Shown here one piece after another: positions 56,300 to 62,706 of a stretch of 64,000 bases of DNA. Position numbers and translations under genes: made by a program. The notes beneath the pieces are model-generated. The model saw only the letters and a program-made list of their open reading frames with translations, did no database searches and had not been told where the DNA came from. This DNA comes from an uncultured Candidatus Saccharibacteria bacterium (lineage in GTDB: Bacteria; Patescibacteriota; Saccharimonadia; Saccharimonadales; UBA7683): NCBI GenBank assembly GCA_964397855.1, contig CAYNKQ010000001.1, positions 38,046 to 102,045 of the forward strand. Direction: 5' to 3'. Within the stretch, counting starts at the first letter, position 1. Each line of letters starts with the position of its first letter.

Positions 56300-57160
56300 A
56301 TGGAGTATAAACAAACAGTGAAATTACCGCGAATCATCTTTAGTTTGGTCGTTACTGTGGGTATAACCCTCGCTGCTGTTCTACCAGTTGCGGCGGCTAC
56401 ATACGGAGGTGGAAATGCACAGGGCTACGCGGCAGATACGCCACTTGATAACGGTACAATCGTCCAGCTTACAGGCAAAAATGCCAACCGTGTAAAAATC
56501 GCAAAGCAATCAGAGCTTCAAAATATGTTTGGCGTAACGGTTGATCGAGCACAGTTACCCGTGATGCTGTCGAATGAAGCACTCGAAAACGAAGTATTTG
56601 TTGCAGTTTCAGGTACGTATAACGTATTAGTGAGCACTCAGAGTGGTCCAATTGTTACGGGCGACTATATAACCCTTTCAGCTGTGAGCGGTGTCGGCAT
56701 GAAAGCCGGTACTGAAGAAAAAACCGTATTTGGTCGAGCCAACGGATCATTTGATGAAAAAGGTGTAACGCTTGGTAGTACAACACTCAAAGACGATCAA
56801 GGCAAAGAAAGCAAAACGGTTAAACTCGGATTAGTACCAGTAACAATCGATATTAAGCGCAACCCCAACACCAAAAGCACCAAGACCAAGGTACCCGAAG
56901 CGCTTCAGAGGTTGGGCCAGGCAATCGCCGAAAAAGAGGTGAGTGCGATTCGTATTTATTTGAGCATGGGAATTACGGCCGTAAGTATTTTGGCTGCAAT
57001 TGCTATCTTATATTCCGGCGTGCGCAACGGTGTGATCTCGATAGGTCGTAATCCTATGTCTAAAAAGTCAATATTTAGAGCATTACTTGAGATTATATTG
57101 ACTAGTATATTAATTTTAATAATTGGCTTATTTGCGGTATATTTACTACTGAAGCTATGA
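56300..57160 (+). CDS. Signal-anchored protein with ~210-aa extracytoplasmic domain and a C-terminal F-ATPase c-subunit-like helical hairpin
   Basis: 286 aa. The C-terminal LAAIAILYSGVRNGVISIGRNPMSKKSIFRALLEIILTSILILI aligns with the c-subunit helix1-loop(ARQP)-helix2 pattern, including the carboxylate (E) in helix 2. The Gly-rich helix-1 motif is not conserved. Confidence 0.35.
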   Translation: MEYKQTVKLPRIIFSLVVTVGITLAAVLPVAAATYGGGNAQGYAADTPLDNGTIVQLTGKNANRVKIAKQSELQNMFGVTVDRAQLPVMLSNEALENEVFVAVSGTYNVLVSTQSGPIVTGDYITLSAVSGVGMKAGTEEKTVFGRANGSFDEKGVTLGSTTLKDDQGKESKTVKLGLVPVTIDIKRNPNTKSTKTKVPEALQRLGQAIAEKEVSAIRIYLSMGITAVSILAAIAILYSGVRNGVISIGRNPMSKKSIFRALLEIILTSILILIIGLFAVYLLLKL

Positions 57161-57172
57161 TACGCAGATAGG

Positions 57173-58009
57173 GTGGGCAACATGGGGTTATTTCAAGGTA
57201 AACAGCAGTCGAAGAAGTCATCAAAAGATGATCCAGACGCTGATGTTCAGCATTTTTTTGATGAACATTTCCGCGAAGAATTGCGCAACCACGGTCGTTG
57301 GTATTTTGAAAAGATTATCACCGAAAATGCGACACTGTTTAAACAAGATCTCGACGATGCAATTTCTGTCGTAAAAGATGAACTGAAAGAACGAATGTCT
57401 AAACAGATTGACGAACAGTTGGTCGAATTTAGCAAAGCTATGAAGGAGGCCCAAGAGACCGCTCTGGAATCTCTGGGTCACGGCGCCAAAGTCCTAGAAG
57501 AACAGCGACAACAGCTGAGTGAATCACTGCACAAAAATATCACCGACCAAGAAGCCGCTATGACCACGGTAATAAAAGATGCTCAAGATCTTGCCCTGCA
57601 GTCAATAAACCGAAGCGGCCATGCGCTTGACGAGCAGTATCAACATCTCAGTGTGGCTTTGCACAAAAATATCACCGACCAAGAGACTGCAATGGCTAAC
57701 GCAGTCCAAGAAAACCAAACACACTTAGCTGCTGTGAAGGCTGTGCAAGATCAAGCATTACAGTCACTGAGCGCTACTGCCGAAGCCCTGCAAGAGCAAC
57801 GGCAGCAGCTTGCCCAACTCTTGGTGAAGAACGTTGCCAATCAAGAAGCGGTATTGGTTGGTGCATTTGAGGACAATATGGCCCAGGTTGTCGAACATTA
57901 TCTTCTTGGCGCACTAGGAGATCAGTACGATCTCAAGGCCCAACTCCCAGCCATTATTAAGCAAATGGAAGACAATAAGCAGGCGATTGTGGACGACGTA
58001 AAATTATGA
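57173..58009 (+). CDS. Coiled-coil protein with ~40-aa tandem repeats, in the position of ATP synthase subunit b but lacking a TM helix
   Basis: 278 aa. Repeats ...LQS...EQRQQL...LHKNITDQEAAM... x3. Stop overlaps the start of the delta-like gene (ATGA). Confidence 0.4.
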   Translation: MGNMGLFQGKQQSKKSSKDDPDADVQHFFDEHFREELRNHGRWYFEKIITENATLFKQDLDDAISVVKDELKERMSKQIDEQLVEFSKAMKEAQETALESLGHGAKVLEEQRQQLSESLHKNITDQEAAMTTVIKDAQDLALQSINRSGHALDEQYQHLSVALHKNITDQETAMANAVQENQTHLAAVKAVQDQALQSLSATAEALQEQRQQLAQLLVKNVANQEAVLVGAFEDNMAQVVEHYLLGALGDQYDLKAQLPAIIKQMEDNKQAIVDDVKL

Positions 58010-60103: not shown

Positions 60104-60970
60104 ATGCGCCGTCCACTTGAAATTAAAGCAGAAGAAGCCTCGGTTCGATCAGTAGTGAGTTTGACATCAGCACTCGAAACGCTCAGTAGTATGCAGATCG
60201 CCAAGACCAAGAATAAAGTGATGATTAGTAACCAGTTTTTCGATGAAGTCTGGAACATCTACAAGCAAATTCGTGTTGATGTGTTGTTTAATTTTGGTCG
60301 CAGTGTTGAAGAAAAAGCCATCGACAAAGAACTGCTCATTCTTATTACTGCGAAGGGTGGTTTAAGCGGAGATATCGACCAGCGACTGATCCGCAAAGTT
60401 GTGGAACGGTATAATGAAGCCAAAAATGACGTGCTAGTAATTGGCCATCATGGCGCACTAAAATTGAAGCAATCGCACATAGATTACACCTACTACTTTG
60501 AGCTACCCGAACGAGACTATATTAACGTTGACCCGCTAATGGACATTACCAGAAAGTATTCCAAGAGTCGCATCTTCTACCAGCACTATATTTCGCTTTC
60601 GCAGCAAGAAATTAAAGACGTTGATCTGAGCGAAGTTGTTTCTAGCAAGGGTCGTGTGGCGGATCTCTCTATTGTAGACAAAGACATGGTAACTGAAAAA
60701 ACACATATTTTTGAACCAAGTTCGTATGCGGTTGCGGCTTACCTTGAAAATTCAATTTTGCGCTTGACGATTTCGCAGTTTATTTACGACAGTCGTCTTG
60801 CGCAGGTTGCAAGTCGCTTCAAAGCCATGTCGGCTGCTAAAGAACGCTCGATTGCTAATGCGGCTGAACTGCATACCGAATACAACCGAGCCAAGCGCAG
60901 CCAGGTTGATACTAGGCTGAAGGAATCATTGGCTGGACTCAAGAAAATACGTGCAGGAGGAGCAGAATAA
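60104..60970 (+). CDS. atpG: F1-ATPase gamma subunit
   Basis: 288 aa. N-terminal [33 protein letters not shown] fits the gamma IK.RI.SV....KITKAM.MVA..K pattern. Positioned between alpha and beta. Confidence 0.7.
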
Positions 60971-62394
60971 TGAGCGATCAGACAGTATATAAAAAGGGTG
61001 TTATTCGTGCCCTAAAGGGTCTGGTTATTAAGGTTCAGTTTGATGAAGATATACCTGATATTAACGAGATGCTCTACGTTGATAATGAAAAGAAATCACC
61101 CTTACTTGTGAGCAGCCTGGCTCACGGTGATATCGCAATTTGTTTGAACATTGGCGGTGACTACAGTATTCAAAAAGGCGAGGCTGTAACGCGCAGTGGG
61201 CGCAGCCTTGAGATTCCGGTGGGCGAAGAAATGATTGGCCGAGTTTGGGACGCTATGGGGCGTCCAATTGACGGCAAACCACAACTAGACCAAGCTGTGC
61301 TGGATAAGATGGTTATGCGCCCAATCTTCTCGCCCGCGTTTCAAGAAACAAGCCTAGAGAATCACTCTGATGACGTACTTGAAACGGGCCTAAAAGTACT
61401 CGATTTCTTTACCCCGTTTGTTAAGGGTCGCAAGATTGGTATTGTTGGTGGCGCTGGTGTAGGTAAGACCGTGCTGACAATGGAAATTATTAACAACGTA
61501 GCAGTTGGTTCGGGCGCGATTAGTATGTTTGCTGGTATTGGCGAACGCATTCGTGAGGGCCATGAGCTTTACAAAACCCTTGGTGATAACGATCTGCTCA
61601 AAACAACCGCAATGTTTTTTGGTCAAATGAATGAAAATCCAGTTCAACGAAGCCTGATTGGTCTAAGCGCAATCACACTAGCTGAGTATTTCCGTGACGA
61701 TATGAAAAAAGACGTACTGCTATTTGCCGACAACATGTACCGGTATATTCAGGCAAAAAACGAAGTTTCAACTATCATTGACCAAACTCCGGCTGAAGGT
61801 GGGTATCAGCCAACGGTGTTCTCTGATGTCAAAACGTTCCAAGATCGCTTAGCAAGTAATGCTAACGGCTCCATTACTGCCCTGCAAACCATTTATGTGC
61901 CTGCTGATGACCTTTCGGATCCCGCGGTGCAAATGATCCAGCACGAACTCGACAGTACTATTGTGCTTTCGCGTGCGGTTGCTGCGCAGGGTATTCGTCC
62001 GGCAGTAGACATTCTAGCTTCGAAGTCGAGCCTGCTTACTCCTGAAGTTGTTGGTGAGCGTCATTATGATCTGGCAACACGTGCTACCGCGATTTTACAA
62101 AAGTACGAGTCGCTCAAAGGAATTATTGCGATTATTGGTGAATCTGAGCTTTCCACTGAAGACCGCGACGATTACAATAAGGCAAAACAGCTCATTGAAT
62201 TCTTCAAGCAGCGATTCAACGTGATGGAAAAGGTAACGGGTGTACCAGGAGAGCACATGACTCGTGAAAAAACGCTCGACGGTGTTGAAGAAATTATCGG
62301 AAAGAGCCAACAGGCAGGTCCGCCAGCCGAGGCTGCGGTAGTAAACGAAGCTCCTCAGCCGGCTGAATCACCCGAAAACAAAGAGGCTAGCTAG
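60970..62394 (+). CDS. atpD: F1-ATPase beta subunit
   Basis: 474 aa. P-loop [19 protein letters not shown] and the DELSEED-like [13 protein letters not shown]. Start overlaps the atpG stop (TAATG). Confidence 0.9.
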
Positions 62395-62706
62395 GTGGCC
62401 GACAATGCGTCAGTTCCAGCCACCGAAGAAGCCGAGCAGGTGGCGGTTAACACTGGCGGCAAGCCAACAATAGCCGTTAAAGTGTATGCCCCGTTTAAAG
62501 TGTACTTTGAAGGCTCTGCTTACAGTCTTAGCGCAGTTAACGCAACCGGGCCGTTCGATATTCTGCCCGGACACCATAACTTTTTGTGCATGCTCGTGCC
62601 ATGCGATCTTGTAGTGGTGACACCAAAAGAACGTAAAGTAGTTAAAATATCACGAGCACTAATGCATGTAAAAGCCGACAGTGTTTCAGTTTTTGTAGAT
62701 GTGTAG
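62395..62706 (+). CDS. atpC: F1-ATPase epsilon subunit (N-terminal beta-sandwich domain only)
   Basis: 103 aa with a GTG start. GPFDILPGHHNFLCMLVPCDLVV matches the epsilon G..GILPGH.P....L motif. No C-terminal helical hairpin. Confidence 0.55.
   Translation: MADNASVPATEEAEQVAVNTGGKPTIAVKVYAPFKVYFEGSAYSLSAVNATGPFDILPGHHNFLCMLVPCDLVVVTPKERKVVKISRALMHVKADSVSVFVDV

Follow-up and report, generated by a model that had tools for sequence, protein, structure and literature searches.

The window analysed here is a 64-kb stretch (64,000 nt) from an uncultured Candidatus Saccharibacteria bacterium (contig CAYNKQ010000001.1), and its subject is a cluster of seven genes, g1, g2, delta, alpha, gamma, beta and epsilon, that are tightly packed on the forward strand and fill positions 56300-62706. 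The cluster probably encodes a second, paralogous F-type ATPase whose likeliest activity is ATP hydrolysis uncoupled from ion flow. A first-pass annotation, made from the letters alone, placed the open reading frames (ORFs) at the coordinates found here and left two options, namely that the membrane sector (Fo) is encoded elsewhere or that the genes specify a modified F-type machine. The second option is the one supported by the conservation of the cluster, the c-like g1 and the b-like g2. Like canonical F1Fo (atpBEFHAGDC), the cluster keeps the gene order from c through epsilon with the b-like gene between the c-like gene and delta, and it has recognisable alpha, beta, gamma, delta and epsilon subunits with intact beta catalytic motifs.

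The five F1 genes are identified by profile searches. Delta (OSCP-like, 170 aa, 58006..58518) matches PF00213 with an E value of 1.4e-6 over aa 94-156, that is, in its C-terminal half only, and scores 30.2 bits with TIGR01145 (cut-off 57.5). The alpha-like subunit (530 aa, 58511..60103) starts at the GTG at 58511 and matches PF00006 (E 2.9e-62); its NCBIfam equivalog score is 385.6 against a cut-off of 554, and an independent gene call on a Logan contig also gives a 530-aa protein. The gamma-like central stalk (288 aa, 60104..60970) matches PF00231 over its full length (E 3.7e-25; NCBIfam score 78.7, cut-off 194). The beta-like catalytic subunit (474 aa, 60970..62394) is matched by Pfam and NCBIfam models (E 4.3e-65), aligns to 2qe7_D with E 4e-108 and scores 433.8 with TIGR01039, for which the cut-off is 462.85. 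The epsilon-like subunit (103 aa, 62395..62706) matches the beta-sandwich family PF02823 over aa 27-102 (E 4e-10) and has an NCBIfam score of 28.4 against a cut-off of 67. The F1 part is divergent, since all five subunits fall below the NCBIfam equivalog cut-offs. The canonical order delta-alpha-gamma-beta-epsilon and the coupling that had been proposed are both borne out by the order of the Pfam and NCBIfam matches and by the junctions. The stop of g2 overlaps the start of delta by 4 nt, delta overlaps the GTG start of alpha by 8 nt and gamma overlaps beta by 1 nt, while alpha and gamma abut, as do beta and epsilon.

The catalytic residues of the head have been kept. The beta Walker A motif GGAGVGKT is invariant in 83 relatives, and the alignment to 2qe7_D shows that the catalytic segment GER(I)REG and the Walker B Asp (LLFADN) are retained. 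In alignments that include 5ik2_A, alpha retains the arginine finger (the Arg of RPAV) and the Lys and Thr of its P-loop. The alpha P-loop differs from the canonical one. It reads GDSKVGKT instead of GDRQTGKT, as the first-pass annotation had pointed out, and the type GD[SG]K[VS]GK[TS] is family-wide. The N-terminal helix of alpha is also about 11 residues shorter than in solved alpha subunits. The charged, low-complexity C-terminal tails that had been described for alpha and beta do exist and are present in relatives, where their sequence is not conserved. Epsilon also departs from the canonical subunit. As had been noted, its C-terminal helices are missing, and this holds family-wide, with a beta-sandwich alone and a median length of 103-108 aa. 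The epsilon C-terminal helical domain inhibits ATP hydrolysis in bacterial F1. Because the beta motifs are intact and epsilon is without its C-terminal domain, the enzyme would be biased toward hydrolysis. Judged by its motifs, the alpha3beta3-type head looks catalytically intact and hydrolysis-competent.

Constraint on these genes was measured by identity to the window proteins in about 80 Saccharibacteria species. A g1 relative is encoded by 352 GTDB species genomes, and the set used for identities and flanks consists of the best 80 matching genomes of these 352, nearly all of them labelled Saccharibacteria. Median identity is 88% for alpha, 89% for beta and 87.5% for gamma (about 64-80 species for gamma). 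It is 69% for g1, 67% for epsilon and 63% for dn414, the convergent gene that follows epsilon; delta stands at 55%, g2 at 43% and the other flanking genes at 45-56%. Gamma is thus as conserved as alpha and beta, which suggests strong constraint on the rotor. A pseudogenised duplicate is ruled out by the intact ORFs and by the alpha, beta and gamma identity of about 88% across species.

The first gene, g1 (56300..57160), had been described as a 286-aa signal-anchored protein. The coordinates and the N-terminal hydrophobic helix (aa ~11-33) stand, although the helix, with AAA|T at its end, resembles a cleavable signal peptide more than it does an anchor. Gene callers also use an alternative start, the GTG at 56318, which gives 280 aa. 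An AlphaFold2 (AF2) model built on an alignment of 34 diverse relatives has a mean predicted local distance difference test score of 87.9. It contains an extracytoplasmic beta-rich domain of about 150 aa (aa ~41-187), a short helix at 200-210 and a C-terminal hairpin made of helices 216-250 and 252-285 joined by a GRNP loop. In Foldseek searches of the PDB the beta domain resembles the capsid cement or decoration proteins of tailed phages (best E 4e-5), with structural matches from Borrelia phage BB1, Sf11, HFTV1, phiCD508 and XM1. Sub-threshold matches to the Pfam family XM1_gp53_minor_capsid in 11 of the 34 family members agree with this.

In the same type of search the hairpin could be superposed on the F-type c subunits of Chloroflexus, cattle, yeast and the chloroplast, with target-normalised TM-scores of 0.74-0.88, root mean square deviations of 1.3-2.1 A and probabilities of 0.97-1.0. 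In the GRNP loop all 34 diverse members have the same G, R and P, and at least 90% have the N; mitochondrial c subunits likewise have an R-N-P loop. A c hairpin places both of its ends on the membrane's outer face, so that the order signal peptide, outside domain, hairpin makes topological sense, and from the signal peptide and the outside domain we infer that g1 is oriented N-out. The hairpin is predicted to be c-subunit-like and it stands in the atpE position. Compared with a canonical c subunit, g1 carries in addition the signal peptide and the outside domain of about 150 aa and is without a carboxylate in the middle of the membrane.

The g1 family is large and is largely confined to one class. 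It has 2068 members in a 90%-identity database, which form 1271 clusters at 50% identity, and nearly all are 260-300 aa long. The named matches are nearly all Saccharimonadia, with names that include Candidatus Saccharibacteria, Saccharimonadales and Microsaccharimonas, and the distant members that carry names are also Saccharimonadales. The names of the homologues assign the window to the TM7 lineage. A lone g1-like gene that is 28% identical to the window g1 was seen at 2154-2987 of locus L085, beside RNase H and with no F1 gene or dn414 nearby. One metagenome-assembled genome (CAYVSX01, isolate SRP342105_co3_222) holds two full atypical clusters on different contigs (L017 and L081), which could be a true duplication or a mixture of strains.

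The missing carboxylate is central to the question of ion transport. Six reference c sequences (E. coli, bovine, yeast, spinach, PS3 and Ilyobacter) have their ion-binding Asp or Glu 18 residues after the loop Pro. At this position the relatives of g1 have I, L, V or F in almost all cases, and D or E in only 2 of 264. The first-pass annotation had noticed a carboxylate in helix 2 of g1 together with the RNP loop and the c-like hairpin. The fold and the invariant loop residues hold, and a Glu is indeed present in the window protein, but it is not conserved and not in the canonical position. It lies at +12 after the loop Pro, six residues off and, counted from the cytoplasmic side, two residues inside the hydrophobic stretch. 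This is the only carboxylate. A Glu in helix 2 is shared by 130 of the 264 relatives; Q replaces it in 91, and K or R in 24. The Glu is one helical turn (i+4) past a conserved Arg at +8, and this suggests an interfacial pair and not a transport site. Helix 1 is free of D and E in 168 of 169 members.

The other half of an ion path would be subunit a. No match to PF00119 was found in the cluster or in the whole 64-kb window, and the only ORFs there with several transmembrane segments encode a sugar transferase, a Wzy_C protein and a member of the VIT family. A single-sequence search of low sensitivity with E. coli AtpB, run on the ORFs of some 170 related loci and their 10-kb flanks, gave no match. 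The E. coli proteins AtpB, AtpE and AtpF, together with five further c subunits, were also used as single-sequence queries; they found nothing in the Saccharibacteria loci and gave one weak b match in metagenome loci. The earlier remark that no a-subunit gene precedes g1 thus extends from the window to the related loci. Compared with canonical F1Fo, the cluster is without an a subunit and also without AtpI/AtpZ. Because there are no half-channels and no ion site, a gradient of protons or sodium would not be the output.

Against this has to be weighed an ordinary ATP synthase or H+-ATPase that translocates ions through a very divergent Fo. Its ring would use the helix-2 Glu, and its a subunit would be borrowed from the canonical operon or encoded elsewhere. 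The Glu in the window g1 and in the 130 relatives fits such an enzyme, as does the retention of delta, the b-like protein, gamma and epsilon, all of them parts of a coupled enzyme, and the literature reads Saccharibacteria F-type genes as ATP synthase. However, the Glu is displaced and is replaced by Q or by K/R in the numbers given above, with +18 hydrophobic; in about 170 loci the cluster comes without an a subunit, and the window g2 has no transmembrane (TM) helix to hold one. The single atpB found in relatives, moreover, accompanies a complete canonical set. Such a divergent synthase is therefore very unlikely.

The canonical set in relatives is documented in published data. In Southlakia epibionticum, SEML1_0349-0358 comprise atpI/Z, a (PF00119, 8e-45), c (PF00137), b, delta, alpha, gamma, beta and epsilon, and the genome has two PF00006 proteins in total, which means that it has the canonical set alone (PMC10633639 supplements). 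Counts of KEGG Orthology (KO) assignments show one copy each of atpB, atpF and atpE in the complete genomes of TM7x, RAAC3, GWC2_44_17, Ca. Saccharimonas aalborgensis and Ca. Mycosynbacter amalyticus (PMC12592800 Table S5). In the same table alpha, beta and gamma are counted once each in TM7x and RAAC3, which have the canonical operon alone, and twice each in GWC2_44_17, Ca. S. aalborgensis and Ca. M. amalyticus. GWC2_44_17 is CP011211.1, which carries the cluster with the same flanks and a g1 that is 78% identical. Since this genome has one a, b and c, two each of alpha, beta and gamma, and the cluster as well, the cluster is best read as a second F-type ATPase and not as an F1 that is missing its Fo. 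A standard atpB-atpE-atpF block elsewhere, which had been put forward as a possible refutation, does occur in close relatives (PMC12592800 Table S5), but it comes with its own alpha, beta and gamma and so belongs to a separate, complete F1Fo. The companion proposal, that the two upstream genes might then be unrelated neighbours, fails on the c-like hairpin of g1, on the b-equivalent g2 and on the occurrence of the seven genes together in 131 loci. Several bins of the order CAILAD01 have KO hits for alpha, beta and gamma, and some for epsilon, with none for a, b or c (PMC12592800 Table S5). Such bins may carry only the atypical ATPase, although they are counted among those with an F-type ATPase.

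The second gene, g2 (57182..58009), occupies the atpF position. It is 275 aa long from the likely ATG at 57182, which matches a 275-aa database protein, and 278 aa from a GTG. The first-pass annotation had described a coiled-coil protein with three tandem repeats and no TM anchor. This description was accurate. The three units of about 44 aa are 43-50% identical (z 14-18 against shuffles), and no TM segment was found in the window g2. AF2 predicts one long helix of about 220 residues (31-252) and a short C-terminal helix, and the C-terminal segment is conserved, as is the N-terminus (MGLFQxK...FFDExFREELRN). Foldseek gave no matches with the model, a single long helix, and a PDB profile search returned generic coiled-coil proteins only, for example apolipoproteins and F-BAR. 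The identity of g2 is clearer in other lineages of Saccharimonadales. The homologues there are 203-218 aa long and 49 of 50 have an N-terminal TM helix, which is strongly hydrophobic and of the form MTIWWL...FIWLAV. PF00430 (ATP-synt_B) gives weak, sub-threshold matches in the same register in 4 of 10 of these homologues, and E. coli b matches one homologue with an E value of 0.0027. Because of the N-terminal anchor in relatives, the long helix and the position between the c-like gene and delta, we identify g2 as the likely b equivalent.

The peripheral stalk would then consist of delta, recognised in its C-terminal half, and a g2 that is anchored in the distant relatives and not in the lineage of the window. 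Compared with canonical F1Fo, the g2 of the window lineage has no TM helix and has a triplicated repeat; this lineage has lost the anchor and expanded the repeat. Among close relatives in the same lineage the length of g2 was seen to step by about 25 aa (227, 250, 275 and 301), with repeat units gained or lost. Such stepwise lengths are odd for a stalk that spans a fixed distance.

The seven genes travel together. Of 169 g1-like genes with context, 131 head a g1-g2-delta-alpha-gamma-beta-epsilon block (type A), and the same order is found in the complete genomes CP011211 and TM7i CP075337. In a separate lineage (loci L087 and L089) the seven genes lie among housekeeping genes, without dn414 or the Saccharibacteria flanks. 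The seven-gene block is therefore a tighter unit than its surroundings. A different arrangement (type B) is seen for 15 of the 169, in which g1 is followed directly by a convergent dn414 homologue and the genes from g2 through epsilon are absent; L088, L096, L109, L111, L120, L123 and L148 are among these loci. In L088 (1-11865) a 3103-aa ORF lies between two g1-like genes.

The type B loci raise the question of whether g1 has anything to do with the ATPase. It could be a protein of a surface module, functionally unrelated and kept beside an F1-like enzyme by inherited gene order, and the enzyme itself would then be peripheral or soluble. The loci with g1 and dn414 and no F1 genes fit such an arrangement, as does the relative P0248, which stands alone beside RNase H, and the sequence similarity of g1 to c is below threshold. 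The lineage of L087 and L089 points the other way, since g1 heads the seven-gene cluster there without dn414 or the usual flanks. The two genes are also close together: the g1-g2 gap is 21 nt in the window, where AGGGTGGG precedes the g2 ATG at 57182, and tens to ~180 nt in other mapped loci. Chance could hardly account for the combination of the GRNP loop with a c-like fold and an atpE position. A g1 that is unrelated to the ATPase thus seems highly improbable.

Several observations still weigh against a second F-type ATPase built on a c-like ring. The sequence evidence that the hairpin descends from c is weak (E 0.013 and 0.0043, sub-threshold, and E 0.87 in the PDB). The only NCBIfam match of g1 is the c-subunit model PRK07159, with E 0.013 and 15.5 bits against a cut-off of 122. 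This model is the most recurrent NCBIfam match among the 34 diverse members, where it matches 4, and no Pfam family, PF00137 included, matches g1 or any of the 34 above threshold. In the PDB, a c subunit comes first among the matches to the family profile (E 0.87). When the family is aligned by hhalign to the six reference c subunits the loops align with E 0.003, at a probability of only 10%. Two-helix hairpins also arise independently, and type IV secretion system pilins are filed under the subunit c fold (supplementary table, PMC10633639). The GRNP loop region is as conserved in type B loci as in type A. Apparently g1 is able to work without an adjacent F1, or the loop is kept for some other reason. 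The coexistence with a canonical operon rests on a published KO table for relatives. The stator is the weakest point: no membrane partner for it was identified, and g2 is without a TM helix in the window lineage.

The neighbours of the cluster are mostly surface proteins. Downstream of epsilon lies dn414 (62712..63737, reverse strand), a convergent gene for a bactofilin-like beta-helix protein, which was recognised by synteny and by sub-threshold PF04519 matches (best 25.7 bits against 27.9). Its likely start is the ATG at 63737 (341 aa), although the longest ORF extends to 63956; the median length of homologues is 340-342 aa. The protein has an acidic N-terminal tail, one TM helix and the beta-helix, and the gene follows epsilon in most type A loci. 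Past dn414 there are six co-directional genes (208, 535, 366, 348, 304 and 385 aa) at 11570-18445 of L170, in the genome of the window and just beyond the window's right end. In a hydropathy scan five of the six, all except the 208-aa product, have a signal-peptide-like hydrophobic N-terminus, and two have a C-terminal TM anchor. None of the six has a Pfam family, and weak WxLIP_PGBD and PKD matches are found in a homologue in L088. Type A and type B loci alike keep this run of secreted proteins downstream of dn414.

Upstream of g1 there is a divergent gene, up1025 (52985..56062, reverse strand), which encodes a 1025-aa surface protein with a CBM_4_9 domain. The giant surface protein of the first-pass annotation is therefore confirmed by a Pfam match. 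The gene is syntenic in the Saccharibacteria set and absent in other lineages, and it may be context and not a component. The 237-nt divergent intergenic region between up1025 and g1 (56063..56299) is the presumed promoter site, and scans of the locus for promoters and terminators gave nothing above shuffled expectation. The cluster sits inside a conserved island of surface-protein genes.

This setting has suggested another use for the head. Instead of being a freely spinning rotor, the g1 ring could be a static ring or pore in the membrane, on which the F1-like head docks to drive the export, insertion or remodelling of the secreted neighbours through or beside it, much as FliI/FliJ-type ATPases act in type III export. 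Alpha and beta also strongly match FliI/SctN models, genes for secreted and surface proteins surround the cluster, and the loci with g1 and dn414 that are without F1 genes show that g1 belongs to the surface module. The same idea has been raised for mycoplasma clusters (Beven et al., PMC3369863). However, alpha and beta score far higher on F1 than on FliI models, and the full-length gamma, epsilon, delta and b-like stalk amount to a rotary design that is kept under strong selection. The lumen of a c-ring is, moreover, narrow and plugged with lipid. An export ATPase is for these reasons unlikely.

For a hydrolysing second F-type ATPase the following mechanism can be proposed. Copies of g1 would oligomerise into a ring like that of c, and the loops of the ring would dock gamma and epsilon as in F1Fo. 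Each copy would display its beta domain of about 150 aa outside the cell, so that a crown would sit on the ring outside the cell. Driven by ATP hydrolysis, the g1 ring would turn or twist against the delta-g2 stalk, and the output would be mechanical or conformational work at the cell surface, on or with neighbouring surface proteins such as dn414 and the downstream secreted proteins. By synteny only, dn414 is a candidate for the stator. A more specific version can be put forward tentatively, and we regard it as rather doubtful. It holds that the machine is a rotary transmission in which a c-derived ring without an ion site, topped by a phage-cement-like crown, passes torque to surface proteins, and that it is also an evolutionary intermediate between F1Fo and the mycoplasma X0 ATPases. 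The evolutionary part of this version is argued from the retention of c-like, b-like and delta subunits. If a transmission of this kind is real, an epibiotic bacterium would use ATP at its surface to power movement, adhesion or attack.

The closest known parallel is found in mycoplasmas. The Type 2 and Type 3 F1-like X0 ATPases of these bacteria hydrolyse ATP (Beven et al. 2012, PMC3369863). Type 2 has been linked to gliding (the M. mobile gliding motor), and Type 3 is associated with MIB-MIP, an extracellular antibody-cleavage system (bioRxiv 10.64898/2025.12.04.692339). In these reduced, host-dependent bacteria, too, seven genes form a second F-type cluster beside a genuine F1Fo; the cluster has subunits like alpha, beta, gamma and epsilon, lacks subunit a and is linked to the cell surface. 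Mycoplasma Protein 5 (MSC_0620 / MMCAP2_0577) resembles g1 in its layout, in which a signal peptide precedes a large non-cytoplasmic part and a short loop joins two C-terminal TM helices. This likeness is one of description, and g1 gave no sequence match to the mycoplasma X0 models in NCBIfam.

There are also clear differences. The mycoplasma clusters have no delta and no b-like stalk, and their alpha is without the N-terminal delta-binding region, whereas the Saccharibacteria cluster has both delta and a b-like protein. They include a 12-TM Protein 1 and a cytosolic Protein 2; no 12-TM protein is found in the Saccharibacteria cluster or its conserved flanks, and the gene orders are unlike. 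Alpha and beta score 238.5 (cut-off 520), 396.7 (570), 326.7 (600) and 365.6 (850) on the models for MSC_0619/MSC_0618 and MMOB1660/MMOB1670, and the canonical atpA and atpD models outscore these mycoplasma models. Membership in mycoplasma Type 2 or Type 3 can thus be rejected, given the presence of delta and a b-like protein, the absence of a 12-TM protein and an alpha and beta that fall outside those families. The cluster may work in a way comparable to the X0 ATPases, but it is not one of them. The alternate (N-type) F1F0 ATPase is likewise rejected. The NCBIfam models for its alpha, beta, gamma and epsilon score below their cut-offs and below the canonical models, and the gene order of N-type ATPases differs from that of the cluster.

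Unusual F-type ATPases have been noticed in other candidate lineages. Seymour et al. 2023 (PMC10066038) describe 'non-respiratory', non-bioenergetic F-type ATPases beside type IVa pilus genes in Omnitrophota, which are ultrasmall host-dependent bacteria, and report that the beta subunits of Ca. Saccharimonadia group with these homologues. The Omnitrophota copies have pilus genes adjacent to them, and none lies beside the window cluster; the distant locus L087 has a PilM_2 gene about 4 kb downstream. An atypical atp operon is also known from WWE3 and OP11, and the 'a, b, c' genes were remarked to be non-homologous in WWE3 (Kantor et al. 2013, PMC3812714). This case concerns other phyla and is known from a short description, whereas the named matches of the g1 family are nearly all Saccharimonadia. 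In the literature searched, no paper was found that connects 'c-ring' to the Candidate Phyla Radiation (CPR), Patescibacteria or Saccharibacteria, and no description was found of g1, g2, the lost carboxylate or the outside domain.

The cluster matters for how genomes of this group are read. Surveys of Saccharibacteria and other CPR bacteria rely on KEGG hits to record an 'F-type ATPase', which they then interpret as ATP synthesis or proton pumping, and in the genomes examined the extra alpha, beta and gamma hits come without extra a, b or c. Metabolic inferences for CAILAD01-type bins may therefore be wrong, since these have alpha, beta and gamma hits without a, b and c. If g1 is indeed a c-like subunit that has kept the F1-docking loop, lost the carboxylate and gained an outside domain, it is an unusual re-use of a rotor. 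The cluster may also show how the mycoplasma X0 machines arose, and, as c-like, b-like and delta parts can be made out in it, its mechanism may prove easier to solve than theirs. It is present in the cultivated strain TM7i and, by KO counts, probably also in Mycosynbacter amalyticus, and genetic tools exist for Saccharibacteria (PMC10633639).

Other parts of the window deserve a brief mention. Nonribosomal peptide synthetase (NRPS) genes lie at 39454-48967, in a genome of the ~1 Mb class. One of the proteins encoded, of 1988 aa, contains two stretches each for AMP-binding, condensation and PP-binding; the others are a C-T-C protein of 952 aa and a phosphopantetheinyl transferase of 234 aa. Genes for secondary metabolites are uncommon in Saccharibacteria. 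A gene of the histone-deacetylase family (48937-49971, reverse strand) adjoins the NRPS genes, and a gene pair for the sugar transferase and the Wzy_C (O-antigen-ligase-like) protein is found at 16050-18861.

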